Assembly (NCBI GenBank): GCA_963741385.1
Contig: CAVUHO010000003.1
Coordinates: 134,833-198,832, forward strand
DNA length: 64,000 nucleotides
Direction: 5' to 3'
Origin: Candidatus Sulfomarinibacteraceae bacterium
Lineage (GTDB): Bacteria; Acidobacteriota; Thermoanaerobaculia; Thermoanaerobaculales; Sulfomarinibacteraceae
In this document: in pieces, positions 27,346 through 40,820 of the stretch
Numbering within the stretch: the first letter of the stretch is position 1
Layout: every line of letters starts with the position of its first letter
The notes under the pieces: model-generated
Seen by the model: the letters and a program-made list of their open reading frames with translations, nothing else
Database searches by the model: none
Told to the model about the DNA's origin: nothing
Made by a program: the position numbers and the translations under genes

Positions 27346-27969
27346 ATGTGCCTCGATACCCGCGTGACCCGCGAACCCAGGGTGCGAGCCCTTTGGGTCC
27401 TGGTGTGCGACCCGGGCGGCGCCAGCGACGGCAGGCCGTCACCGGGCAAAGACGAATGGGTTCACAGCGCGGTCCACTGTCTGCACCGGGCGGTGGACGG
27501 CGCGCATGACGTGGTCGTTGTCTGCTTCGGCGATGCATCGATCGGGAATCGAGCTGCATTGGTGGAACTGTGCGCCGCACTGAAGCAGAACTCTCATACC
27601 AGGGAGCGCCCCGTGCTCGCGTTGATCAGAGCGCGACATCGAGGACTGATCGAGGATCTGGAACGGGCGCAGGTCGATTTCGTTTGCGTCGTGGGAGAGG
27701 CCGATCTGGACCCGGCCGCCGTGCGGGCGATCCTCCAGGAGGTGGGGCCGGACGACGAGCTGCCACGTTTCCTCGACACACTCTGTCCGTTGATTCACTA
27801 CTGCGCCGATGACGCCGAGCACGAGCTTGCGGTGTGCGGGGGGTACCTGGACCGGCTCGTGCTGGGGGGTAATCGTTTGCGTCGTATCTGCGAGACCCGT
27901 GAACATCTCCGCTGCGAGTACTTTCTGAGTCCCAAGCCCAAACGAACGCGCCGGGCCGGTCACAGTTGA
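27346..27969 (+). CDS. Hypothetical protein with a receiver-like N-terminal pattern and a Cys-rich C-terminus
   Basis: ATG at 27346 within ORF 27280..27969. It has the codon bias of its neighbours. C-terminal cysteines: CPLIHYC...CGG...C...C. No recognised family. Confidence 0.45.
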   Translation: MCLDTRVTREPRVRALWVLVCDPGGASDGRPSPGKDEWVHSAVHCLHRAVDGAHDVVVVCFGDASIGNRAALVELCAALKQNSHTRERPVLALIRARHRGLIEDLERAQVDFVCVVGEADLDPAAVRAILQEVGPDDELPRFLDTLCPLIHYCADDAEHELAVCGGYLDRLVLGGNRLRRICETREHLRCEYFLSPKPKRTRRAGHS

Positions 27970-28023
27970 TCGGCGCCACGAACCCTGTTGCTGCATGAGC
28001 TGTCTGAAATCGGGGCAGATCGA

Positions 28024-28135
28024 TGCCAGGAGAAACGTCGTCAACTTTCTTGATCGTTGAGAGGAACATTGTCGGGAGAGCTGCGCGAGTCTCGGGGTGG
28101 CGAAGCAAACAAAGTTAAGAAAGTTTCTCCTGGCA
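28024..28135 (+). mobile_element. 112-bp MITE-like element, copy A
   Basis: Perfect 13-bp terminal inverted repeats TGCCAGGAGAAAC...GTTTCTCCTGGCA. Near-identical copies lie at 30350..30461 (same orientation) and 39454..39565 (inverted). All are followed by CCGATA. Confidence 0.8.
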
Positions 28136-28339
28136 CCGATACTGCGCGGCGTCGTGGTCGGCCGCAAGAACCACTATGGCTCGAAGTCGAAACGAGGCAC
28201 CGAGGTCGTGGCGCTCTTCTACACCCTCTTCGAAACCGCGAAGCTGAGCCAGATCGACCCGCGTGCCTACGTCACCCTGGCGGCGCACCGCGCCATCGCC
28301 GAGCACGGCGCAATCACCCTGCCCTCAGACCTCTCCTGA
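28136..28339 (+). pseudogene. IS66-family transposase C-terminal remnant
   Basis: The translation LRGVVVGRKNHYGSKSKRGTEVVALFYTLFETAKLSQIDPRAYV matches the conserved C-terminal GRKN...AKL..(I/V)(D/N)P..YL block of IS66 transposases. The N-terminal 400 aa or more are absent, and the fragment abuts MITE copy A. Confidence 0.65.
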
Positions 28340-28610
28340 TCTGCCTCGACTCAGATTCCAAGCACTCCCATCTGCGCCTGGCAAGACGGGGTAGGGCGAG
28401 GGCGTACGTTTGAATGAGGCAACCGCTGTTACCCCAAATCGAAGAACGGCACGGATAAAATAGCCTCCCTCGAATAGTGTGTCATTTTGCAACATCATTT
28501 CACTAGATCGCTGCCTCTCTAGCCTTAATCAATAACTGTTCTCAAATCTGTCAAACCATTTGACGCTATAGAGTAGAATTGCCCAACAAATAATCTGTAG
28601 GAGTTGGCTT

Positions 28611-29228
28611 ATGAGGTTTTTCCTGTTGGCCATCATCGCGGCGATCACCTTGGTCGGCCCAAATCATATTGCAGTCGCACAAGACGCTGAAATGCCGGTT
28701 CCTGGACTGGTGGTAAAGGACGCTGACGGAAAGGTGATGGGGCAGGTGGACGGGTTCTTGCCAGGGACTTCGGGTACGCTCTATCCAGTCGTTGTTTTCA
28801 ATATTGAAGGGAGTCTCGCCTTCTTAGTCTATCGGCCCTATGGTCTGATCGACGGAGTAGCGCACGCAGCTGGAAACTTGGGCGGTCCCACCGTTTATTT
28901 TTCAGGCTCCGACTGCACAGGGAATTCATACGTCAATATTGTTCACCCGGATGGAGTCGAAGCACAGTCCGGATATGCCTATGGCGTAGGTGGGCCAGAT
29001 CCGACTTCAGGGGAATACAAACTGTACCGCTCCAACACGCTGGCAGCCGGCATGTCCTTCGTGACCTCGAAATGGGAAGGTGGTACCTGCAGGAACTATG
29101 GCCCAACAGACCCGGACGTACTTTCCGCAGAGGAAGTTGTTCCCAACCCCCTCGCCGGTTTCCACGGCCCGACAACCGCCAACCCCGAACGCGTGCTGAC
29201 CATTGAGGGTGGCACGAGGCTTCCGTAA
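28611..29228 (+). CDS. Secreted hypothetical protein (paralog pair, member 1)
   Basis: 205-aa ORF after GGAG with signal peptide MRFFLLAIIAAITLVGPNHIAVAQ. The C-terminal 33 aa (SAEEVVPNPLAGFHGPTTANPERVLTIEGGTRLP) are nearly identical to the next gene. Lower G+C than the flanks. Confidence 0.7.
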   Translation: MRFFLLAIIAAITLVGPNHIAVAQDAEMPVPGLVVKDADGKVMGQVDGFLPGTSGTLYPVVVFNIEGSLAFLVYRPYGLIDGVAHAAGNLGGPTVYFSGSDCTGNSYVNIVHPDGVEAQSGYAYGVGGPDPTSGEYKLYRSNTLAAGMSFVTSKWEGGTCRNYGPTDPDVLSAEEVVPNPLAGFHGPTTANPERVLTIEGGTRLP

Positions 29229-29243
29229 AGAAAGGAGAATGCT

Positions 29244-29828
29244 ATGAGGTCATTTCTTTTCACCTTGGCAGCCATCTCTTTCCTGTTAACCCCAAGCCAA
29301 AGCGCGGATGCCCAAAGCGCAGAAATGCCGTTGCCGATTGCTGTCGTGAAGGACGCGGACGGGAAGTTGATTGCTCAAATCGTCGATATTGGGCCTAATG
29401 AGGGATCCGATCCCAAAGTACTACTCAACATAGGTGGCACCCCTGTCCCTTTTAGAGTTTCACCTCTCAAGGGGGTGTTTGAATCTCAAAGATTTGCCTA
29501 TTTCCCCTTTGAAAATTGCAGTGGTAGCCCAGCCATAACCCCTCCCCTAGCCATTGGTTGGGACTCCTTTTCTCAAACGAGTTTTGCGGTGGTTGGTCCG
29601 GACCCTGACTCTGGGACGTACAAGGTCTATCGATCGACTTCGCCAACTCCCGTGGCGTTTTCCCCTCTTTCCTATTGGATTGACGGATCCTGCGATGGCA
29701 TAACTGGGCAGACTTTGCTGTCTCCTGCAGAGGAAGTTGTTCCCAACCCCCTCGCAGGCTTCCACGGTCCGACAACCGCCAACCCCGAACGTGTATGGAC
29801 GATCGAGGGCGGCACGAGGCTCCCATGA
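29244..29828 (+). CDS. Secreted hypothetical protein (paralog pair, member 2)
   Basis: 194-aa ORF after AGGAGAA with signal peptide MRSFLFTLAAISFLLTPSQSADAQ. The N-terminal motif AEMP.P..VVKDADGK and the C-terminal block are shared with 28611..29228. Confidence 0.7.
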   Translation: MRSFLFTLAAISFLLTPSQSADAQSAEMPLPIAVVKDADGKLIAQIVDIGPNEGSDPKVLLNIGGTPVPFRVSPLKGVFESQRFAYFPFENCSGSPAITPPLAIGWDSFSQTSFAVVGPDPDSGTYKVYRSTSPTPVAFSPLSYWIDGSCDGITGQTLLSPAEEVVPNPLAGFHGPTTANPERVWTIEGGTRLP

Positions 29829-30295
29829 TGGACGCCAAACACCCAACCCACATCATCTGGAAACTGATTCCCCTGGTCGGCTTCATCCTTATTGCCGGAG
29901 TCATCCCCGCCGAAAGTGAAACCTGCAACGTCCCCTCCTCCAGCTATCCCTCAATCCAATCCGCCGTCAACGTCATCAACTGCACCGAGATCGTACTGAC
30001 GTCCGGCAACTTCTTCGGTGATGTCACCATCGGTCGTACGCTGACGGTTCAAGGGGTATCCAGTGCCTCAACCACCGTGTTTGGGAAAGTGACGGTCTCG
30101 GGTTCAGATACCCAGGCCACGCTCAAGGGACTGAAGATCGCAGTCGGTCCTGAAGATCTTCCCCACAATGGATTGGTGGTTGTGGGTGATGCTGAGGTGA
30201 TTCCTGATGACCTTGTGATTGGATCGACTGATTTGATCTTCGAGGATGGTTTTGAGCGCGGGAATACGACGGCTTGGTCGAACACGGTGTCCTAA
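29825..30295 (+). CDS. Small secreted or membrane-anchored protein sharing N- and C-terminal modules with the giant surface protein
   Basis: ATGA overlap with the upstream stop. A hydrophobic N-terminus is followed by SYPSIQSAVNVINCTEIVLTSGNFFGDV (compare DYTTIQEAVNNASPGDEIVVDDGSYDESV in 3449..9166). The C-terminus is DLIFEDGFERGNTTAWSNTVS (compare DLIFSDGFESGGTTMWSLTTP). Confidence 0.65.
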   Translation: MMDAKHPTHIIWKLIPLVGFILIAGVIPAESETCNVPSSSYPSIQSAVNVINCTEIVLTSGNFFGDVTIGRTLTVQGVSSASTTVFGKVTVSGSDTQATLKGLKIAVGPEDLPHNGLVVVGDAEVIPDDLVIGSTDLIFEDGFERGNTTAWSNTVS

Positions 30296-30349
30296 GGTTT
30301 TGGATTGGAGAACGTGCCAATGAGGCATTCCCATAGTGGTGCCTAGTGG

Positions 30350-30461
30350 TGCCAGGAGAAACGTTGTTAACTTTCTTGATCGTTGAGAGGAACATTGTCG
30401 GGAAAGCTGCGCGAGTCTCGGGGTGGCGAAGCAAACAAAGTTAAAAAAGTTTCTCCTGGCA
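30350..30461 (+). mobile_element. 112-bp MITE-like element, copy B
   Basis: Same 13-bp TIRs and internal sequence as copy A, with a few substitutions. Same orientation. Confidence 0.8.
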
Positions 30462-30496
30462 CCGATATAGAGTACTACTAAGCCGCATCGGCATCA

Positions 30497-30555
30497 GTGC
30501 CAGGTACATAGTTACGGAGTTGTGAAATGTAACTGCGGAACTCCGTACCTGGCAC
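30497..30555. repeat. 59-bp REP-like imperfect palindrome R1
   Basis: GTGCCAGGTAC...GTACCTGGCAC ends. Aligns along its full length to the reverse complement of R2 (32597..32655). It lies 3 nt beyond the stop of the 30559..32454 gene. Confidence 0.75.
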
Positions 30556-30558
30556 CGA

Positions 30559-32454
30559 TTAGGGAGTCCCGCCGGTTGCGGCGACGCGACGGCCGACCCG
30601 GCGCGGCGCCGGGTTGAGCCCGAGTGCCCTCTTGATCCGGTTGCCGTCCGCCAACGAGATCCCCGCCGAAGGGATGACGATGGTCTGGTCGTCACCGCCC
30701 ATCGGCGGCAGGCCCTGCGGCTGGTTGTTGACAATGATCGCCGCCACGGCGCCCGCATCTTGTGCGTTCTTCACCTTTTCGACGAACAGGCACGTACCGC
30801 GGTCGATGACGGCGATCTTACCCGTGATCTCGCTGGCGTTGACCAGCGGTTCGCAACCCAGGATCGGCGCATTCGAGCCGTCGCGGACCACGGCCAGATC
30901 TCCGGAGACCCCCACAACGCTCACCGGCGGCCCGAACTGGGCCGTCTGTACCGCGTAACCCCCAGCCAGGCTCGGAGGTGAGTTGATGAGAAGCCGCGGG
31001 GCGTTGCCGAGAATCTGAGGCGCTGCATCGACAGAGGCCGGCCCATCCCAGACCAACCGCCCGGTGTTGACGGCGGAGGTCCGACGTTCGTCGTTGGTCA
31101 TGACGTTCCAGTGCAGACCGATCTCCGAGTCGAAGGTGTAGACGCTGTAGATGCCGGGTTGCCGCGGGAGGCCGGCAAAAAACGGCAGCGACCCGGTGCT
31201 GGGATCAACGAAGCTCTGAAACCCCAGCCCGTGCGCGATCTCGTGGAGGGCCACCATGGCGAAGGAGGCCTGGCCGCTCGGCGTGTTGCCGTCCAAACCA
31301 TAGTAGAAGCGGTAGGACGGCGCCAGGCAGCCCTCGTCAATTCGGCTGTTGAAGTTGGCCACAACGTCGCCGGTGTTCGAGGGCCGGTTATTTTCGGTCG
31401 TGCTGAGGTTTTCGCCCGCCAGGGCTTCGGCGAGAGCGCCGGAATACCAGGTTCCCTGGCGAGGGGCGTTCGCGAAATCGGAAAACAGGTAGCGCGTACC
31501 GGCCGCCGCCAGAACCGCCCCTTCATCGGGATCGCAGTCGAACTCGTCGAAGGCTGCGTCAATGTTGATCTCGATCTCGCTGCCGAGGAGAGTCCCCCAG
31601 ACGTCCGCAGCCCACTGCAAAGCGGCAAGCCGCTGTCCACCAACAGTGGTCCCTCCCGGGTTGGCGGGAGACTCGGGGACAACGGTGGCATCGTTGAAGC
31701 CTTCGCCACTGGAGTCTTGAACCCTGATGGTCACGGTAGAGGAGCCGGCGGGCCAGCCAATGTCCTGGAAAAGCGGGAGCGTGAGGTCGACCTCGCCGAA
31801 GCCGACGCCCGGCGACGCGGTCGGCTCCATCAGAAGGTCAGGGGTGGCCGAAAGGTCCCAGTGGGAAATCGAGGAGCCCAGCTCGAGCGGATCCGGGTTG
31901 TAGAGCAACGGCCGCCCCAGCGTGTCGGCGCCGGCCAGACGAGTCGGGTCGATGGCGAGGCTCGCGGAGACCTCGGCCGCCTTGAAGGACAGCTGCGACG
32001 GTGGCGCGACCGCCAACAGCCCGAGGGAGAGCGGGACATCGATTCCGGCCTTTGCCGAACCGAGGCCCATCAGCTTTTCCACCGCTTGCACATGGTCAAC
32101 ACACGACGTCGCGAACGAGCCGTCCGCTCGCACCTGGACCATGAAGACGTGCCGAAAGCGACCGTCGAGGTCAACCCCTCTCCCGCCGTTGTCGAGATCG
32201 AAGACCTGCAGGCCATCAGTTGAACGGCTGAGGGCGTTCATGATGGCGCCCGACAGCGGGCCAGATTCCTCGCGAGGTTCCGCTGGAACAACCTGATTGG
32301 GCCCGTCATCAGTCGCGGCTCTCACGACCGAAGGAGCGCCGTCGGGACCCGGCGATGCGGCCGCCACTCCCGCGAGCGGCACCACACAGATGGCGATGCA
32401 GCACAGTATGGTCACTCGGAAACGGAGATTGACTCCAGCGTGCACTCGTTTCAT
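30559..32454 (-). CDS. Secreted zinc metalloprotease-like protein with HExxHxxG motif and a C-terminal PA (protease-associated) domain
   Basis: 631-aa ORF with signal peptide ...CVVPLAGVAAASP. VALHEIAHGLGF motif. PA-domain pattern GKIAVIDRGTCLFVEKVKNAQDAGAVAAIIVNN. Confidence 0.75.
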   Translation of the reverse strand: MKRVHAGVNLRFRVTILCCIAICVVPLAGVAAASPGPDGAPSVVRAATDDGPNQVVPAEPREESGPLSGAIMNALSRSTDGLQVFDLDNGGRGVDLDGRFRHVFMVQVRADGSFATSCVDHVQAVEKLMGLGSAKAGIDVPLSLGLLAVAPPSQLSFKAAEVSASLAIDPTRLAGADTLGRPLLYNPDPLELGSSISHWDLSATPDLLMEPTASPGVGFGEVDLTLPLFQDIGWPAGSSTVTIRVQDSSGEGFNDATVVPESPANPGGTTVGGQRLAALQWAADVWGTLLGSEIEINIDAAFDEFDCDPDEGAVLAAAGTRYLFSDFANAPRQGTWYSGALAEALAGENLSTTENNRPSNTGDVVANFNSRIDEGCLAPSYRFYYGLDGNTPSGQASFAMVALHEIAHGLGFQSFVDPSTGSLPFFAGLPRQPGIYSVYTFDSEIGLHWNVMTNDERRTSAVNTGRLVWDGPASVDAAPQILGNAPRLLINSPPSLAGGYAVQTAQFGPPVSVVGVSGDLAVVRDGSNAPILGCEPLVNASEITGKIAVIDRGTCLFVEKVKNAQDAGAVAAIIVNNQPQGLPPMGGDDQTIVIPSAGISLADGNRIKRALGLNPAPRRVGRRVAATGGTP

Positions 32455-32596
32455 TTCAAACTCCTCGACGACCCCATGTCAGCATACTCAAACACGGCTC
32501 ACTCTGGGAACCACACGAACGGCATCTCGAATTTCATCCCCTCACAACGTTGTCACGCATTCGAAGCCCCGCAAGGGCGTCGAATGAATGCAATGG

Positions 32597-32655
32597 GTGC
32601 CAGGTCCGGAGTTACGCAGTTACAGATCACAACTCCGTAACTCCGTACCTGGCAC
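32597..32655. repeat. 59-bp REP-like imperfect palindrome R2 (inverted relative to R1)
   Basis: Its reverse complement aligns to R1 with a handful of substitutions. It lies 143 nt upstream of the start of the 30559..32454 gene and is followed by CGAT, like R1 and the MITEs. Confidence 0.75.
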
Positions 32656-32903
32656 CGATGTTCTGCCACCATGCTTTCGTGTGTGGCGACTTTGCCGGAA
32701 CTGGCGCCTTCGAGACCCCACGCGATTGCGTTGGCGAACCGGACGCGTTCGGTCAGCGAATCAAACACGGCGGGGGAAAGGAGCACGCAGGCCGCGCGGC
32801 CGGCACCGAAACCGATCCCACCCAAGCCAACCGCCGCGTGGCGATCCTCATCAAGGACAAGGCCAAGTGACCTCGACCCGGAGGGCCGGCTGGGCAACGC
32901 CTC

Positions 32904-35900
32904 TCAGCCCGGCGGTCTGCCCCGCCCCAGGCTGACGAAGAACCGTCCGCCGGTCATCGCGGGATCGTCCGGATAGCCGAGAGCCTCGAAGTCGAGGCGC
33001 CGCTCGACGCCGGGGTAGACCTTTCGGGCATGCTCGGGACGGTCCATCCCCTTGGCGGCACGGTGGCAGCGCACGCAGTTGGCGGCCTCGACGCTGTGGC
33101 AGTCGGTGCACCCCAGGGCCGTCACGGCAGGACCGACCCCGTGGTGAAGCCCTGTGTAAAGGGTTGTCTCCACCCACTCGAAGCGGCCCGAGTACTCGAG
33201 CCCCATGGCCTTCATGCCGTCTCTGATCGACCGCTCCCAGCTGAAGTCCGCCCAGTAGTCCGCCGACAGCTTCGGTATGGCGAGCACACGCGATTCGGCG
33301 TCGACCGGTTGGATTGCGGTATGGGCCTTGAACGGGAAGATGCGCGCCGCCGGGTTTCGCTTGTCCCCGGACGGTGGGTTGAGGAGAACGCCGCGCGAAG
33401 AGTTGACCTTCTCTCCGACCAGGGTCGCGCGGCGGCTGCCGTCGAACCACAGGTACACCGGCACCTGGTCCATGCCCCAGCGAAGGGTCCCGAAGCGGCG
33501 GTCGTAGGTCGGCATGCCGTAGCGGTCCAGCTCCTCCACCCTGTCCTCGCCCGCCACCGAGTAGTCCCGGTGCAGCAGGGTGGGTGTGGCGCGCGCGAAC
33601 GCGGGAATGTGGCAGGTCTCGCAGGCGATGCTGCGGACGTGGTCGTCCAGGTGCTGCCCCAGCATGCCGACGACACCGTGCGGCGTGGAACCGTGGCACT
33701 GCTCGCAGGACACTCGCCCCTCCATTGCCGGGGCGGTCATGGACATACCGGCGATGCGGTGGTGAGTCGTCGTGTGGCAGTCCTGGCAGCGCATGTTGCG
33801 CCTGCCCATATGCTGATCGAGGTCTGCGGACGGATCGGCAAGCTGCGGCTCGAGGTCCCCGTGCTTGGCGTTGGGCGCGCCGCCACTCTGGAAGTGGCAG
33901 GACCCGCAGGTCGCGCGTGACGGACGACCGACCTTGCGGGCGACCGCCACCAGGTCGACCTCCGGCAACGGCATGCCGGCCTGCAGAGGGTCCTTGCGGT
34001 AGGTGCCCGTGGTGTCGTGGCAGACCAGGCAGTCGATGTTGGATGGATCGGTGAAGTCGAAGCCCTCGTCGACCCAGCCGTAGCCGATGTGGCAGGTCGC
34101 ACAGGCCTGGGGGTTGGAGCCGATGGCGATGCAGTAGTTGTTGACCATGAGCTGCAGGCTGATGTCGGTGCGGTGCTGGTAGCCGACGAGGGTCGGCGAC
34201 TGGCCCTTCCAGTTCCAGTGCGCGGTCACCAAGAGGTCGTCGCCGACGCGGGAGTGGCACGCCAGGCAGGCACGGGTAGTCTCCTGCGGGGAGGGCCGCT
34301 CCGGCAGCTCGACGAGGAGGCTGTGGTCGGGCGTCCACGGATGGTGGCACGAGCTGCACTCGGTGGGCGCCGGGGCGGGCTGCATGCGGCGCTCATGGCA
34401 GCCGATGCACTGGCGGTGGTACGCGCCCTTGAGCCCGAGACGCGCAGGGGCGTCCTCCTCGTTGGGCATGCCGTGGCAACGAGCGCAGGACTGCGGCGGG
34501 TTGTCCGCCATGTCCTCGTGGCAGCCGGAACAGGCGCCGCCGATGGGCACGTCGATGGACTCGTGGAGCTCGACAATGTCCTCGCCGACCCGGTCGTCGT
34601 CGTCCCATGAGTAACGGTGGTGGCAGACGCCGCAGTCCCCCCCGTTCAGCTCGTCGTGAATGCGGTGGGAGAAGGCCACCGGCTCATAGTCGTCCGAGGC
34701 GGCGTTCAGCATCGGGTTGGAGAGGACGTAAACTCTCCTGTACCTATCGGGTCGCAGCGGGTACGCATCTCTCGTCGCCTCCACGTGGACGGGTTCGGCG
34801 GCCGTGACCCGCTGAACTTCGGCCACGGTCTCTCGGGAGGCCGCAATCGCAGATCGGTGCACCAGAGAGTACGTGAGGACGAAACCGAGAAGCACCGCGA
34901 CGGCCGAGGCCCGGATCACCCAGGTCCACCGCGACGGCACGGTGCGCGCTCGTTCCTCGCGAAGACTCGCAAGCTGCGCGCTGGTAGCCGGGACGTAGCC
35001 CGGGAGGATGGGGAAGAAGGTCACCAGCAGCCGGTAGCAGAACAGGATGCTGGAGACGATGGCGATGGTCATGGCGATCTCGCCGATGGACGGGAAGTAT
35101 GTCGTGGTGGAGTACGGAGGGTTGTAGCCCACGAGGAACACGTTGATCCGGTTGAGGATCACACCGAAGATGATGAGGGCGATCGCAAAGAACAGCCAGC
35201 CCATGGACCGCCGCACCGCCTTGTTGAGCAGGAGAAGGAAGGGGGCGACCACGCCGATCAGGATTTCGACGACCAGGGCAATCGTCGCACCCGGGTTGTC
35301 GAGGAAATCGATCTGGTTGTGGCGGACGACGAGGTCTCCGATCTTCACCACACCGTAGGCCGCCAGGAACCAGGGAATGATGCGCGCCAGAGGTGTCAGC
35401 AGCTCCATTTCCGCCTTGCGACCGAAGCTGATGTTGGCGTAAATGGACTCCAGAATGACCATCGGGAAACCGACCATGAGTGCCGACAGCAGGAAGAGCA
35501 GAGGCAGGATCGAGGTGTCCCACAGCGCGCTCATTTTGGTGGTGGAGATCAACATCAAGGTGCCGAGAGAGGACTGGTGCATGCAGGACAGCACCACGCC
35601 TGCTACGACGAAAATCGGCAGAACGATGTTCACCCACGAGTGCAGGGCGTCCACGGGCTTCTCGAGGCGGTGCAGAAACCGTGCTCCCGTGGAGTCCTCG
35701 GCAATCCGGTCCTTGAGCCCCTCCAGAATCGAGGGACTCATCTCGACGCTCAGAATCACCAGATAAAAGGTGACGCACATGGCCACCTCGAAAAGCACCG
35801 AGTTGCCCTGCCAGTTGAACAGAGGCCGCCACGAATTCCAATAGCGGCCGAGATCGAAGAGCAGAGCAATGGCAACCCACAGGTAGCCCAGGAATGCTGT

Positions 35901-36185
35901 CAGAAGCGCTGGGCGCAGCAGCGCCCGGTATTTCCTGCGGCCGAAGATCTCCACCAGGGCGGCGGTGAGGAACCCGCCGGCGGCGAGGGCGACGCCGCAG
36001 GCCACGTCGAAAGCGATCCAAATACCCCAGGGATTGTGATTGTCGAGATTGGTCACCGACCCCAACCCGAGGAACAGACGGGTGATGCCGAAGGAAAAGC
36101 CGATTCCCATGAGGATCAGCAGGGTGAGCGTGCCGAAGGTGAAAAACGGCTTGGTGACGCGATGGGGACGGTCGTTGGCACTCAT
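32904..36185 (-). CDS. NrfD/PsrC-like polytopic quinol-interacting membrane protein fused to a 14-haem c-type cytochrome domain
   Basis: 1093-aa ORF. The N-terminal 430 aa or so are NrfD-like TM helices (NPWGIWIAFDVACGVALAAGGF...). The C-terminal 620 aa or so contain 14 CxxCH motifs, counted in the translation. The last 8-9 haems resemble the octahaem tetrathionate-reductase-type family by recollection (IDCLVCHDTTGTYRK, CGSCHFQSGG). ATGA overlap with the upstream FeS gene. Confidence 0.8.
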   Translation of the reverse strand: MSANDRPHRVTKPFFTFGTLTLLILMGIGFSFGITRLFLGLGSVTNLDNHNPWGIWIAFDVACGVALAAGGFLTAALVEIFGRRKYRALLRPALLTAFLGYLWVAIALLFDLGRYWNSWRPLFNWQGNSVLFEVAMCVTFYLVILSVEMSPSILEGLKDRIAEDSTGARFLHRLEKPVDALHSWVNIVLPIFVVAGVVLSCMHQSSLGTLMLISTTKMSALWDTSILPLLFLLSALMVGFPMVILESIYANISFGRKAEMELLTPLARIIPWFLAAYGVVKIGDLVVRHNQIDFLDNPGATIALVVEILIGVVAPFLLLLNKAVRRSMGWLFFAIALIIFGVILNRINVFLVGYNPPYSTTTYFPSIGEIAMTIAIVSSILFCYRLLVTFFPILPGYVPATSAQLASLREERARTVPSRWTWVIRASAVAVLLGFVLTYSLVHRSAIAASRETVAEVQRVTAAEPVHVEATRDAYPLRPDRYRRVYVLSNPMLNAASDDYEPVAFSHRIHDELNGGDCGVCHHRYSWDDDDRVGEDIVELHESIDVPIGGACSGCHEDMADNPPQSCARCHGMPNEEDAPARLGLKGAYHRQCIGCHERRMQPAPAPTECSSCHHPWTPDHSLLVELPERPSPQETTRACLACHSRVGDDLLVTAHWNWKGQSPTLVGYQHRTDISLQLMVNNYCIAIGSNPQACATCHIGYGWVDEGFDFTDPSNIDCLVCHDTTGTYRKDPLQAGMPLPEVDLVAVARKVGRPSRATCGSCHFQSGGAPNAKHGDLEPQLADPSADLDQHMGRRNMRCQDCHTTTHHRIAGMSMTAPAMEGRVSCEQCHGSTPHGVVGMLGQHLDDHVRSIACETCHIPAFARATPTLLHRDYSVAGEDRVEELDRYGMPTYDRRFGTLRWGMDQVPVYLWFDGSRRATLVGEKVNSSRGVLLNPPSGDKRNPAARIFPFKAHTAIQPVDAESRVLAIPKLSADYWADFSWERSIRDGMKAMGLEYSGRFEWVETTLYTGLHHGVGPAVTALGCTDCHSVEAANCVRCHRAAKGMDRPEHARKVYPGVERRLDFEALGYPDDPAMTGGRFFVSLGRGRPPG

Positions 36186-37138
36186 CGCTCGTTCCCCTCT
36201 GCTGCCCGCTCACCGGCCTCAGCGGCCTCCTCACCGTCGTCGGCTTCCGCGTGGCGATGGTTGAACCACATGATCCCGGCAAGAGCGCCATACAACGCGA
36301 CCGGGAGAATGCCATACTTGAAGATGCCGTGCTGGATGGCCTCCGTGCGCAATGCCGGTGCTCTCTCGGGCAGCGGCAGCAGGCCGATCTCTTCCACCGG
36401 CCGGCCAGTCAGGTAGAGCCAACCCGTTCCGCCCACCTCCTGCTCCCCATAGACCTTCTGCACATAGCGGTCCGGCCGCCCCTCCAGGCGCTGGTGGGCG
36501 ATCGCCAGGAGATCGGCGCGTTTGCCGGCAACGAGGGTCTCGGTCGGACAGGCTGCTGCGCACGCCGGATCAGCGCCGCCGCCGGCTGTCGTGCCCGTGC
36601 ACAGCTCGCACTTTCGCACTCTGGGCGCCAGGGCCGTGTCGTACTCGTAGGCCAGCACCTCGAACGGGCAGGCCACCATACAGTAGCGGCAGCCGATGCA
36701 CACGGTGGGGTCGTAGACCACGGCACCGTCAGGCGCCTTGGTCAACGCGCCGACGATGCAGGCCGACACGCACGACGGGATGAGACAGTGCATGCACTGA
36801 ACCTTGGCGAAGGTCACCGGCAGCTCGGTCTGGTCCGGCGACGGGCTCCCTCGGAACTGGTTGACGACAGTGAAGGCGTTCTCGGAAGGCCGACGGAAGG
36901 TGTGCAACACCTCGCGATCCGAGAAGGAGCCGGAGGTGCGCGGCAGGAGGTTGCGCCGATTGCACGCCTCCTCACACTTCCGACACCCGATGCACAGCGT
37001 TGTGTCGACGAGGACACCGGCGTAGTCCGGGGAAACGGTGTGTCTCTCTGCGGCGCCCTCGGCGGGTGCCGGCGCCGTGCCGCTGACTACTGCCGCTGCG
37101 CCGAGGCCCACGAAAGCGCGGCGATCGAGTCGCTTCAT
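36182..37138 (-). CDS. Tat-exported 4x[4Fe-4S] ferredoxin-type subunit (NrfC/PsrB/HybA-like) with a C-terminal membrane anchor
   Basis: 318-aa ORF. Twin-arginine signal MKRLDRRAFVGLGAAA. Cluster motifs CIGCRKCEEAC, CMHCLIPSCVSAC, CIGCRYCMVACP and CELC...CAAACP. C-terminal hydrophobic helix ILPVALYGALAGIMWF. Confidence 0.85.
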   Translation of the reverse strand: MKRLDRRAFVGLGAAAVVSGTAPAPAEGAAERHTVSPDYAGVLVDTTLCIGCRKCEEACNRRNLLPRTSGSFSDREVLHTFRRPSENAFTVVNQFRGSPSPDQTELPVTFAKVQCMHCLIPSCVSACIVGALTKAPDGAVVYDPTVCIGCRYCMVACPFEVLAYEYDTALAPRVRKCELCTGTTAGGGADPACAAACPTETLVAGKRADLLAIAHQRLEGRPDRYVQKVYGEQEVGGTGWLYLTGRPVEEIGLLPLPERAPALRTEAIQHGIFKYGILPVALYGALAGIMWFNHRHAEADDGEEAAEAGERAAEGNER

Positions 37139-37157
37139 GGCATTTCCCTCCGAATCA

Positions 37158-37195
37158 ATTGTAATATCTTTTGCTCACTTGTGAATCTGCTCACA
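37158..37195 (-). promoter_or_regulatory. Candidate sigma-70 promoter overlapped by a perfect CRP-type palindrome
   Basis: Read on the minus strand: TGTGA-gcagat-TCACA (37180..37195), which equals TGTGA-N6-TCACA. -35 TTCACA, a 16-bp spacer, -10 TACAAT (37158..37163), then GGAGGG and the ATG at 37138. Confidence 0.5.
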
Positions 37196-37198
37196 AAA

Positions 37199-38342
37199 TA
37201 AAAGTGCCATAAAAGTGCCATAAAAGTGCCAGTAAAAGTGCCAGGTACGGTGGTTATGATGTTATAATGTCCTTACCTCAATTGGTGGAGATGGGGGATG
37301 GGGCGTCGACCGCGGATACTTTTGCCTGGTGGTATTTACCACGTGTACAACCGGACGTCCCGTGGCGAGGACGTTTTCCGTGAGGACGAAGAGGCCGATC
37401 GGCTCGAGGGCCTCATCTCTGCGACGAAGGCGCGAGACGACTTCCAGATCCTCGCCTGGTGCATCATGTCGAATCACTACCACCTCGCGGTGCGGATGGG
37501 AGAGGTCCCATTGTCACGATCGATGCGAACGATCCACCATAGGTTCGCACAGAGCTTCAACGGTCGGCACCGCGTCTTCGGTCCGTTCTGGCAGGGCCGT
37601 TTCCGGTCGAAGTTCGTGGGCGACGACGAGTATGTGAGACGGCTCATCGCATACATCCATCTCAATCCGGTGACCGCCGGAATCGTGAGAGATGCGGCGC
37701 AGTATCGGTGGTGTGGGCACCGCGAGGTGGTCGGTAGGGCGGCGGGACGTCGTCTGGTCGATGTCAACGAGACGCTGATGTCGTATCACCCGAAGCGAAG
37801 GGATGCGCTGGCGGGGTACCGCGAGGCGATGTCATCGACGCTGGCTGAGGAATGGCGGTCGGAAGGCCCGGGGCACCTTCCCTGGTGGAAGGTCGGTCGC
37901 CCGAAGGGTGGCGATGACGAGCGGGAGATCGAGGTCGACGAGGCGAAGCCTCGGATCCAGATGAACGGGCGGAGCAACGTCGAGATGAGGCCGAGAATGG
38001 AGATCGCCAGGTTCATCGAATTGGGTGCGGACGCCTGTGGCGTTATGGCAGCCGACTTGAGGAGCAACAGGCGGGGATCGCCGGTGGTGGAGGCGCGAGA
38101 GATCCTGGCCTGGCTTGGGACAATACTGTACGGGTTCAAGGTCAAAGAGATCGCGGCAGGATTCGACAAGTACGGAGAGACGGCGAGTCGATTGGTGAGC
38201 AGAGCGGCGCGGCGTAGGATGGACGATGTGGGCTTCGCGGACCGGATCCAAAGCGTCGATTCCGCGATCACGAAGGGGGCGACTGGGGTCGAGAAAAAAT
38301 AACATCATAACCACCGTACCTGGTACCTTTTTGGTACCTTTT
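37199..38342 (+). mobile_element. RAYT-type (IS200/IS605-like Y1) transposase unit with perfect 23-bp inverted repeats and 11-bp subterminal tandem repeats
   Basis: Left IR CCAGGTACGGTGGTTATGATGTT (37241..37263) is the exact reverse complement of 38301..38323. Outside the IRs there are four copies of TAAAAGTGCCA on the left (37199..37243) and two of TGGTACCTTTT on the right (38321..38342). Confidence 0.8.
37298..38302 (+). CDS. REP-associated tyrosine transposase-like protein (Y1/HUH) with a C-terminal DnaA-C-like HTH domain
   Basis: 334-aa ORF with GGIYHVYNRTSRGEDVF, the HUH motif SNHYHLAV, FWQGRF and the catalytic Tyr region AYIHLNP. The C-terminal segment REILAWLGTILYGFKVKEIAAGFDKYGETASRLVSRA resembles the DnaA domain IV HTH. 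Confidence 0.8.
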   Translation: MGRRPRILLPGGIYHVYNRTSRGEDVFREDEEADRLEGLISATKARDDFQILAWCIMSNHYHLAVRMGEVPLSRSMRTIHHRFAQSFNGRHRVFGPFWQGRFRSKFVGDDEYVRRLIAYIHLNPVTAGIVRDAAQYRWCGHREVVGRAAGRRLVDVNETLMSYHPKRRDALAGYREAMSSTLAEEWRSEGPGHLPWWKVGRPKGGDDEREIEVDEAKPRIQMNGRSNVEMRPRMEIARFIELGADACGVMAADLRSNRRGSPVVEAREILAWLGTILYGFKVKEIAAGFDKYGETASRLVSRAARRRMDDVGFADRIQSVDSAITKGATGVEKK

Positions 38343-39569
38343 CGCGAGCCCTTCGTGGCCCATGAACGTGTGCCACTGTCGTTCACCATCGGAGTTCAGC
38401 TTGACGGCAAAACCGTTATCCCCTCCACCGTGTGAATGAACGGGCGTTCTCCACGAGGCATCGCTGGCACCACTACTACCGGCATCCTCGATGAAATTCA
38501 GGATGTTGCGGCCGAGAACACCATCGACGACCTCCTGCGGGTACCCACGCTCGGTGAGACGCCGGCCGATCCTCGAGAAAGCATCCTCGCGGTTGAGGCT
38601 GGCCGGCACGTACCTCCCTCCAGCCTGAAGATCGGAGCCGATGCCAACGTGATCGGGACCGAGATGCCCGATCAACTCGGCGATCTGGTCGACCATCAAC
38701 TCCAGTGCATCCGCTTCCGGATCACCTGCCAGCAGATCTGAGGCGTTGAACGACACCCAGACTGATCCGCCGGTCTCCCCGAGCTTCGCCACGACGTCGT
38801 CAGGCAGGTTGAATGCCGTAGGGCTCACCTCAGCGGTGAGGCTGTGGGTCGCGACCACCGGCGCTCTCGATTGTTTGATGATTACCAGTTTCTGCGGATG
38901 ACTCAGGTGGGTGATGTCGATCGAGACGCCGGTTTCATTCATGGCCTCCACGATCCGTTTCCCGAATGGCGTCAATTCGTTCGATCGATCGCCGACACCG
39001 AAGAGCCCGTCGGGGTCCTTCTCCACGAGACCGATGATTCGCACCCCGAGATTTCGAAACCGCTCCACCCTCCCTGGATCTCCATCGAAAATCCTGTCAA
39101 ACCACTCGATGGAGAACAGGAGGCGAAGGTCGTTCTCTGGAGCGCTGCCCGGCTTCTCGTGCGGACCGACGATCGAAAAACCCGCGTCCGTCGCCGCAGC
39201 CCGCCGAAGCTCCGTCATTTCGCTGACAATGCGGGACTCCACATCCGATGTTTTCGATCGGTCGAGGGGCAGTGGAACCACCACCGTATCGATGCCGCGA
39301 GATCGCACTGCCGCGAGCCGTGAGAGGTCCAGCCGGCCGCCCCTAATACCAATGACGTCGTGGTTGTGGCCGTCGACCACCGGGCTCGGCTCGCCCGCGA
39401 TCGCAGGCGGGCACAACGAAAAGACGATCAACGCGGCTGCGTATCGGTATCGGTGCCAGGAGAAACTTTCTGAACTTTGTTTGCGTCGCCACCCCGAGAC
39501 CCGCGCAACTCTCTCGACAATTTTCTTCCTGGCGATCAAGAAAGTTAACAACGTTTCTCCTGGCATCAC
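38268..39569 (-). CDS. Peptidase M19 (membrane dipeptidase) family protein with both ends remodelled by mobile elements
   Basis: M19 motifs DGHNHD, ITHLSH, VVATHS and GIGSDL. The first 38 codons or so lie in MITE copy C and the last 25 codons or so lie in the right end of the RAYT unit. The native start and stop are therefore uncertain. Confidence 0.6.
   Translation of the reverse strand: MMPGETLLTFLIARKKIVERVARVSGWRRKQSSESFSWHRYRYAAALIVFSLCPPAIAGEPSPVVDGHNHDVIGIRGGRLDLSRLAAVRSRGIDTVVVPLPLDRSKTSDVESRIVSEMTELRRAAATDAGFSIVGPHEKPGSAPENDLRLLFSIEWFDRIFDGDPGRVERFRNLGVRIIGLVEKDPDGLFGVGDRSNELTPFGKRIVEAMNETGVSIDITHLSHPQKLVIIKQSRAPVVATHSLTAEVSPTAFNLPDDVVAKLGETGGSVWVSFNASDLLAGDPEADALELMVDQIAELIGHLGPDHVGIGSDLQAGGRYVPASLNREDAFSRIGRRLTERGYPQEVVDGVLGRNILNFIEDAGSSGASDASWRTPVHSHGGGDNGFAVKLNSDGERQWHTFMGHEGLAKRYQKGTRYGGYDVIFSRPQSPPS
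39454..39565 (-). mobile_element. 112-bp MITE-like element, copy C (inverted)
   Basis: Reverse complement of copies A and B, with the same 13-bp TIRs. The CCGATA flank is duplicated (TATCGGTATCGG at 39442..39453). Confidence 0.8.
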
Positions 39570-39575
39570 TAAGTC

Positions 39576-39863
39576 TTAAGTTTTGAATCGCCACACTTCA
39601 GCGGGAGGAATCTGCCCCTCTGTGTTGCACTTGGGACAGAGGACTCGCACCCCGCTGCCGGTCATCACTCCGAACACGCCCGGCGGGTCGAGTGAATCTT
39701 CCCTTGGAGATGACCACTCGGCGTGACATTTGGTGCACCGAAAACTGATCTGCTTGGGTGCGCCTTGCATCGGCTTTGACGGGTTTCGGTTTCTTCGGAG
39801 CGTCGGGTCTTTAATCTCGCTCCATTCTTCGACAGCGAGTATCAGAATAGGTGATTCGCTCAT
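39576..39863 (-). CDS. Small zinc-ribbon-like hypothetical protein
   Basis: 95-aa ORF from the ATG at 39863 (inside the longer ORF 39576..40235, which would run through the tRNA). Two CxxC pairs (CTKCH...CPKCN). Lower-G+C region. No RBS checked. Confidence 0.35.
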   Translation of the reverse strand: MSESPILILAVEEWSEIKDPTLRRNRNPSKPMQGAPKQISFRCTKCHAEWSSPREDSLDPPGVFGVMTGSGVRVLCPKCNTEGQIPPAEVWRFKT

Positions 39864-39976: not shown

Positions 39977-39998
39977 TGGTGCGAAAGGGGGGGCTCGA
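39977..39998. repeat. Direct repeat of the tRNA-Leu 3' end (att-like scar)
   Basis: TGGTGCGAAAGGGGGGgCTCGA versus 40155..40176 TGGTGCGAAAGGGGGGaCTCGA, 21 of 22 identical. It lies 157 bp beyond the tRNA 3' end. Confidence 0.65.
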
Positions 39999-40153: not shown

Positions 40154-40241
<88 letters not shown>

Positions 40242-40650: not shown

Positions 40651-40820
40651 CGATTTCGGATTTCGGATTTCGGATTTCGGATTTGCGCCCGCCCACCCGG
40701 CAGCCGGGACGGCTGCCCCACAATTCCCCCGGCAGAACAAATTGGTTTGTGGGGCACGCGTCTCGCGTGCCGGGCGGGCGGTCGGGAATTCAAAATTCAG
40801 AATTCAAAATTGAGAATTGA
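40651..40820. repeat. Composite structured intergenic repeat, copy I (GGATTTC heptamer arm, GC-rich double-hairpin core, GAATTCAAAATT-type arm)
   Basis: (GATTTCG)x4.7 at 40651..40685. Core with GGCAGCC-GGGAC-GGCTGCC + CCCACAA ... TTTGTGGGG + CACGCG-TCT-CGCGTG. AT-rich 7-nt-period arm at 40786..40820. Confidence 0.8.

Follow-up and report, generated by a model that had tools for sequence, protein, structure and literature searches.

In a 64,000-nt stretch of the genome of a Candidatus Sulfomarinibacteraceae bacterium (contig CAVUHO010000003.1, positions 134,833 to 198,832 of the forward strand; hereafter the window), the gene for a 631-aa secreted metalloprotease is bracketed by two inverted 59-nt palindromes, R1 and R2. 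Each of them is a dimer in which the left and right terminal inverted repeats (TIRs) of a TIRtron, a unit in which such repeats enclose a gene for a Y1 transposase, meet head to head across a 9-nt loop. The 2.0-kb cassette that holds the protease gene has changed its genomic place in this lineage, and the end of an element was the stopping point of at least one rearrangement. We lean, without great confidence, towards reading R1 and R2 as orphan TIR-dimer elements that mark rearrangement junctions and not as the ends of a working composite transposon; they probably contributed to the formation of these junctions.

The initial annotation of the window had described R1 and R2 as an inverted pair of one sequence with a few substitutions, and both the positions and the orientation that it gave are borne out (Table 1). 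R1 ends 3 nt from the protease stop codon, while R2 lies 142 nt upstream of the ATG. The two differ at 6 of 59 positions when one is reverse-complemented. Identity is 53/59 in this inverted comparison but 45/59 (14 differences) in the direct one, so the inverted orientation is real and not a by-product of palindromy; the asymmetries of the loop and of the arms also mean that R1 and R2 truly face opposite ways. A repeat search extends the pair to 69 nt (30492-30560 and 32592-32660, 88% complementary) by adding ATCR/CGAT to the 59-mer, and at R1 this palindromic extension (ATCG/CGAT) overlaps the stop codon by 1 nt. R1 reads GTGCCAGGTACATAGTTACGGAGTT-GTGAAATGT-AACTGCGGAACTCCGTACCTGGCAC. Both elements fold into a hairpin with a 25-bp stem, with free energies of -20 to -29 kcal/mol and z-scores of -7 to -10 against shuffled sequences. 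An Rfam search of the hairpins returned no family, only chance matches to microRNA precursors far under the threshold. The reading of the locus as an integron cassette, in which a 59-nt imperfect palindrome right after an open reading frame would be an attC site, was ruled out: the elements are without attC core sites and match TIRtron ends.

Each arm of the 59-mer consists of GTGCCAGG followed by two direct sub-repeats, and palindromy arises only in the whole 59-mer. The elements are miniature derivatives of the ends of Y1-transposase units, of the same superfamily as the unit that begins at 37238 in the window. This relationship, proposed from the start, is well above chance: the genome has 8 occurrences of GTGCCAGGTACGG where 0.36 are expected, and the 25-nt arm pattern yields 17 half-sites against 0 for the reversed control. 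A closer claim, that both elements open with the same 13-14 nt as the left end of the neighbouring unit, holds in part. R2 starts on the forward strand with GTGCCAGGTCCGG, and only its other arm corresponds to GTGCCAGGTACGG. The first 8 nt, GTGCCAGG, are common to every Y1 unit family in the genome and are therefore not specific to the neighbouring unit. Short palindromes built of two unit ends occur, dispersed, for four Y1 unit families of the genome; the 114-nt elements at 28023, 30349 and 39453 form a TIR-dimer family different from that of R1 and R2. The 59-mers had been called repetitive extragenic palindromes (REPs), a name that does not fit in the strict sense: they have no GTAG or CGTC tag, their arms are not palindromic alone, and their copy number is low.

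The family extends beyond the protease locus. Five copies, R1 to R5, are present in this genome, and a census of the arm pattern in 25 genomes of the genus, with the reversed pattern as control, finds the R1/R2 arm type in 19 and the control in none. R1, R2, R3 and R5 are only 88-92% identical to one another, which marks them as old insertions. R4 is more distant; it sits between genes on contig C9 (contigs of this genome are numbered with C, genomes with G), 16-20 nt past a stop codon. No empty site for R3 was found among 25 congeners, and the R3 flanks consist of other repeats and a conserved tRNA-like stretch.

The assembly (4.77 Mb in 17 contigs, 95.65% complete) contains at least 12 Y1 paralogs with 35-99% identity, each in a unit of about 1057-1104 bp. 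Pairs at 99% and 91% identity are among them, and the near-identical units must have been active recently. Every unit has GTGCCAGG at both ends, and behind it two tandem 8-9-nt sub-repeats whose sequence varies by protein clade; examples are TCAGACGAT in two copies, AACAAAGTT/AACAATGTT, TCCGCAGT/TCCGTAGT and GTGGTTAT/GATGTTAT. Transposase clades that are at least about 65% identical have their sub-repeats in common, and clades below 60% do not.

In the TIRtron of the window, the 47-nt arms are 81% complementary and their first 26 nt match at 25 positions. Its transposase matches PF01797 (Y1_Tnp, 1.2e-11) and NF047646 ('REP-associated tyrosine transposase', RAYT; 88.9 bits against a cut-off of 80). 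It carries the motifs NHYH (SNHYHLAV), WQ (FWQGRF) and YIHLNP and so has the Y1/HUH core signature of subclass 2.1 (NH[YF]H, W[EQ], Y[IV]HLNP; Table 1 of PMC6006769). The C-terminal tail gives a weak match to Bac_DnaA_C at residues 244-290 (E 0.001, 19.5 bits, under the gathering score of 31.5) and a weak match to a DnaA equivalog model at residues 232-292. Domain IV of DnaA reads 9-mers. Together with the DnaA-C-like tail and with sub-repeats that track the protein clade, this suggests that the tail reads the clade-specific repeats while the HUH domain cuts the shared GTGCCAGG terminus. The window unit is not single-copy. A 91% identical copy with an insertion of about 780 bp lies at C3:241693-243561, a 253-nt internally deleted derivative at C3:3721-3973, and a 68% identical relative on contig C15.

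This unit, which starts 4583 nt from R2, had been taken for the matching partner of the two elements, and the arms speak against it. Past the shared octamer, the arms of R1 to R4 agree with the units on C4 and C5 at 12-15 of 17 positions and with the window unit at 6-10 of 17; a gapped alignment gives the same result. As the arms match another clade, the neighbouring unit has only superfamily features, GTGCCAGG and TACGG, in common with R1 and R2. Full units with arms identical to those of R1 to R3 (GTGCCAGGTACGGAGTTACGGAGTT) are found in three congeners, two in G005 and one each in G020 and G021. The arms of these exact partners read TACGGAGTTACGGAGTT, and in each unit R1/R2-type repeats flank the transposase gene in inverted orientation. 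The partner transposases are 76-80% identical to each other, 66-68% to the C4 type and 33-36% to the window enzyme. In the present assembly there is no unit with the exact arms; of the clades that are resident, the nearest has 66-68% identity and deviates at 2-5 of the 17 arm positions. R1 and R2 are orphans here because their partner clade is found in congeners and not in this assembly.

In the protease, a PA domain (1.6e-20) and an HEIAH motif are recognised, and NF038122/M36-type metalloprotease models match weakly; solved structural relatives cover the PA domain only. Its composition is native-like (65.5% GC, 0.79 at third codon positions), which gives no hint that the gene was acquired recently from elsewhere. 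About 10 of 24 congeners have a full-length orthologue. The gene is not syntenic among them: relatives with 86-89% identity have it in three or more genomic contexts other than the present one. Copies in three of these share about 88% DNA identity with the segment 30560-32579, which includes a conserved upstream region (Table 1) that would hold the promoter and 5' leader of the gene.

In G016, the closest congener, the protease gene (86% identity in protein, about 88% in DNA) lies directly downstream of genes for the E2 and E3 components of a 2-oxoacid dehydrogenase. The orthologous E2/E3 genes of the present genome are on contig C14, where only 307 bp of other repeats follow before the shared right flank. 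In G020 the protease is within 2.7 kb of E2/E3. On three metagenome contigs (86-87% protein identity) it adjoins an orthologue of C9:5598-9264, and in this genome an esterase-like gene holds that position. In G002 its neighbour is a fer4/NrfD pair, which forms the opposite end of the operon to the one that the gene adjoins here. All pairwise comparisons, with a 59-mer or without, give the cassette the same limits of homology: the stop codon on one side and a point 100-130 nt ahead of the ATG on the other. The 59-mers are absent from the other protease contexts except that of G021, an unrelated one, in which a 59-mer lies 115 nt downstream of the orthologue and a degenerate copy lies further upstream. 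G005 has two protease copies, which were considered as a sign of mobility and set aside: they belong to an 8.7-kb block, 87.5% identical between two contigs, in a bin with 9% contamination, and so do not represent mobility at the level of the gene. An abundant repeat family of about 40 nt, unrelated to the GTGCCAGG elements, flanks the G016 protease (2440-2589 of locus L011, G016:C40) and fills the 'empty' site on C14; it has hundreds of matches in the present genome (G000), for example at 40651-40820 of the window.

The cassette now lies in a flexible region that spans at least 36 kb. Hardly any DNA homology to G016 is found between 2100 and 39976 of the window, and collinearity resumes at 39977 with 77-93% identity, from the tRNA-Leu(CAG) gene onward. 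The 11.65 kb from 27968 to 39618 hold 10-12 element half-sites where 0.3 are expected, about one element per 2 kb, and IS66 debris is also found inside the flexible region. Just outside R2 is the 3' part of a small gene that in G016 continues past both ends of the 141-nt remnant. The cut is 2-6 nt from the outer end of R2, and the last nine codons of the gene are missing there. Its upstream continuation is at C9:35062-35818 (93% identity). A search of the genome, including the sequence beyond R1 and that beyond R2, did not turn up the missing 3' piece. A short-word BLAST search that sought to rejoin the outer flanks of R1 and R2 by way of the G016 sequence gave no match; the two flanks do not form an intact target site. 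Breakpoints therefore coincide with three element ends: both ends of R2, of which the inner one is at most 20 nt from the cassette border, and the inner end of R1, which is at the stop codon. Contig C9 (37 kb) is dense in TIR-type elements of several families and two breakpoints are common to it and the window: the truncated gene continues at C9:35062, and the metagenome neighbour of the protease is at C9:5598. The contig may be physically or historically linked to the flexible region.

According to the reading that we favour, R1 and R2 would be two old, diverged, non-autonomous miniature elements of the TIR-dimer type, mobilised in trans by a transposase from a clade with the unit ends GTGCCAGG-TACGGAGTT-ACGGAGTT. 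They would have landed in an element hotspot beside the tRNA-Leu gene and now mark the exact borders of the relocated protease cassette. The junctions may have formed through breakage at the long palindromes or through transposase action at the element ends; we take the rearrangement that ended at an element end as a sign that palindromes or transposase action promote breakage and joining. Several points weigh against this account. Two of the five copies flank one gene at a distance of 2.1 kb, for which uniform placement gives a probability of about 0.01 (an estimate from copy number and genome size), so that an independent landing of R1 and R2 needs the hotspot argument. Both lie within 0-20 nt of the cassette homology boundaries, as the ends of a composite unit would too. 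An empty site for R1 or R2 was looked for, and none was found that would demonstrate individual insertion. Finally, in an assembly that is 95.65% complete and divided into 17 contigs, the partner transposase could sit in an unassembled repeat.

It is also conceivable, though we think it rather improbable, that the arrangement is pure coincidence: the cassette came by an unrelated route, and R1 and R2 later inserted independently in the spacers and had no part in any rearrangement. The region has about one element per 2 kb, and other copies also lie directly after stop codons between genes, R4 on C9 among them. The 59-mer downstream of the G021 orthologue and its degenerate counterpart upstream, in an unrelated context, fit the same idea. 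However, a simple insertion of R2 cannot account for the truncated gene, whose 3' end is missing on the other side of R2, and it is unlikely that both elements landed 0-20 nt from pre-existing breakpoints.

The initial annotation had proposed that the inverted pair forms a composite element carrying the protease gene. R1 and R2 would then have inserted beside the gene at an earlier site, after which a Y1 transposase acting on the outer arms would have moved the R1-protease-R2 unit. Checks of copies, relatives, contexts and flanks gave no positive result for this proposal, and we regard it as unlikely. Equally unlikely is its fuller form, in which a TIRYT-type Y1/HUH transposase carried the promoter-bearing protease gene as a composite unit from a core-genome site to the flexible region beside tRNA-Leu. 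Some of the evidence agrees with it: R1 and R2 are of one family and inverted, with both outer arms of the left-end type, as in composites resembling Tn5 and Tn10; the protease stands elsewhere than in the nearest relatives, and this genome has two 'empty' sites; element ends match the homology breakpoints; and a natural TIRtron is likewise two inverted arms around a gene. Yet this genome has no second copy of the protease gene or of the R1-protease-R2 unit, and the unit is in none of 25 congeners. No precise empty site was found, the flanks outside R1 and R2 do not join into an intact target, and the sequence outside R1 does not continue the gene truncated by R2. Scans of metagenome contigs and species-representative genomes for the junction (the protease 3' end followed by GTGCCAGGT within 31 nt) gave chance matches only, one per collection and unrelated to the protease. 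Further, the cassette moves among its other contexts with the same boundaries and without 59-mers, the assembly lacks the partner transposase, R1 and R2 are not identical (6 mismatches in 59 positions), and no other inverted pair of the R1/R2 family at kilobase spacing was seen in the genus, TIRtrons apart.

The hairpins may have a terminator or insulator effect on the protease gene and the upstream respiratory operon. As the explanation of the pair, a host function, with R1 as 3' stabiliser or terminator of the protease mRNA and R2 as insulator between the respiratory operon and the protease promoter, has very little to recommend it. REPs and miniature inverted-repeat transposable elements (MITEs) are known to act as mRNA stabilisers, terminators or insulators (PMC3733652), and both hairpins are strong and lie on the transcribed strand, one directly after a stop codon and the other between two co-directional transcription units. 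But no T-run follows either of them, a terminator scan does not pick them up, and orthologous protease genes do without them. A flip-flop inversion of the protease segment between R1 and R2 is hardly credible: the elements are inverted and the orientation of the protease varies between genomes (by fer4/NrfD in G002, in another arrangement), but 59 nt at 90% identity are too little for homologous recombination, and neither an inversion between R1 and R2 nor one between R2 and the TIRtron relates the two arrangements, as the G002 neighbour is the other end of the operon.

Elements of this kind are already known, and the family with the GTGCCAGG terminus is a new member. TIRtrons and their TIRYT transposases, with TIR repeats dispersed singly or as dimers, have been described and include an Acidobacteria group (Di Nocera et al. 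2013, PMC3733652); TIRYTs have been equated with TnpA-Y1 subclass 2.1, whose C-terminal helix-turn-helix (HTH) tails are of the Bac_DnaA_C, HTH_23 or HTH_28 type (Quentin et al. 2018, PMC6006769). The units in the present genome resemble them in the Y1/HUH transposase, which carries the motifs NHYH, WQ and YIHLNP, in the position of the gene between long TIRs, in repeats that are also dispersed, moderately abundant and often dimers, and in having several distinct genes per genome, each with its own TIRs; the C-terminal tail, with its weak match to Bac_DnaA_C, may be a DnaA-C-like HTH. The majority of published TIRtrons, though not all, have the common TIR motif GGGGWSAS, whereas the terminus here is (A/T)NNG-GTGCCAGG followed by the two clade-specific 8-9-nt sub-repeats; all unit ends read GTGCCAGG and none fits the published motif. 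Also unlike published TIRtrons are the number of paralogs in one genome (at least 12, with near-identical ones among them) and a subfamily, that of R1 and R2, without a resident partner.

REPIN/RAYT systems (Bertels and Rainey 2011, PMC3116915; Bertels et al. 2017, PMC5581495) similarly have hairpins of two inverted units around a short spacer, outside genes, and the same units flanking a Y1 transposase gene in inverted orientation, an arrangement that is seen in the G005, G020 and G021 units and not in the window unit with respect to R1 and R2. Mobilisation in trans is thought to apply to both, and the NCBIfam model for the RAYT is matched. A classical REP is a short palindrome that bears a GTAG (or CGTC) tag; tens to hundreds of copies accompany a single-copy, vertically inherited RAYT (PMC5581495). 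In contrast, the arms described here are not palindromic, carry no tag and belong to five copies, and the transposases are multi-copy and insertion-sequence-like.

The likeness to composite transposons such as Tn5 and Tn10 is that two inverted copies of one element with equivalent outer ends enclose a cargo gene. In known composite transposons the enzyme is a DDE transposase, and several sites carry the whole unit together with target duplications. HUH/Y1 chemistry would be at work in the present locus, where the unit is at one site only and its movement is not seen. Judged by its sequence, the locus shows the bracketing of a composite transposon; a unit at a second site, a precise empty site and a transposase that would recognise the ends were not found. 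The catalytic domain (PF01797) is related to that of IS200/IS605 elements. Those have subterminal hairpins, no terminal inverted repeats and often tnpB, while the units in this genome carry terminal inverted repeats, lack the subterminal hairpins and are without tnpB.

Table 1 Positions of the protease cassette, the elements and neighbouring features. Positions are those of the window unless a contig is named.
Feature	Position	Strand	Remarks
Protease gene (631 aa, PA domain, HExxH)	30559..32454	-	86-87% identical to proteins of G016 and three metagenome contigs
Conserved upstream region, about 125 nt	32455..32579	-	accompanies the protease coding sequence in every context
R1, 59-nt TIR-dimer hairpin	30497..30555	+	left arm of gene-upstream type; 88-90% identical to R2 (reverse complement) and R3
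R2, same element facing the opposite way	32597..32655	-	palindrome reaches 32592-32660
R3	C3:277019		59-mer family copy
R4	C9:2529		more distant 59-mer family copy
R5	C9:29836		59-mer family copy, truncated
Remnant (141 nt), 3' part of small gene	32662..32802	-	gene continues past both remnant ends in G016; cut 2-6 nt from R2 outer end
Neighbouring TIRtron, 47-nt inverted repeats	37234..38330	+	334-aa Y1 transposase gene at 37298-38302; not the partner of R1/R2
Y1 unit ends with GTGCCAGG terminus	37238-37263, 38301-38326; C3:23868, C4:5066, C4:11631, C4:14565, C6:561435, C15:150608		
114-nt TIR-dimer MITE, copy 1	28023..28136	+	second family, arms GTGCCAGGAGAAAC
114-nt MITE, copy 2	30349..30462	+	34 nt from R1
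114-nt MITE, copy 3	39453..39566	-	inverted
tRNA-Leu(CAG) gene	40155..40241	-	at the edge of the flexible region

Two further observations concern the elements of the region as a whole. The terminal 6-11 nt are tandemly repeated just outside many element ends, for example as TAGTGGTGCC in two copies, GTATCG in two copies and arrays of AAAAGTGCCAG (30334-30353, 37199-37245 and 39441-39452 in the window; C3:23853-23875 and C3:243551-243575). Such tandem repeats could be the footprint of an insertion or cleavage mechanism, or could reflect elements that target their own end sequence. In two places, 28023-30462 in the window and C9:31371-33086, a pair of 110-114-nt elements in the same orientation (97-98% identical) brackets 1.5-2.2 kb with IS66 fragments and genes for secreted proteins; at both, the IS66 fragment begins 5 nt past the element end.

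To our knowledge, RAYT- and TIRYT-type tyrosine transposases are widespread while their working and their effects on genomes are scarcely understood, and we know of no described case in which elements of this type captured and relocated a gene. As such, the arrangement follows in an ordinary way from the crowding of mobile elements in a flexible region. The locus nevertheless offers a concrete, testable case, as a gene-sized cassette has clearly been relocated and its borders coincide with miniature elements. Beyond the locus, a genome in which a dozen transposase clades differ in the pair of 8-9-nt sub-repeats that follows the shared GTGCCAGG suggests a division of labour that can be tested.

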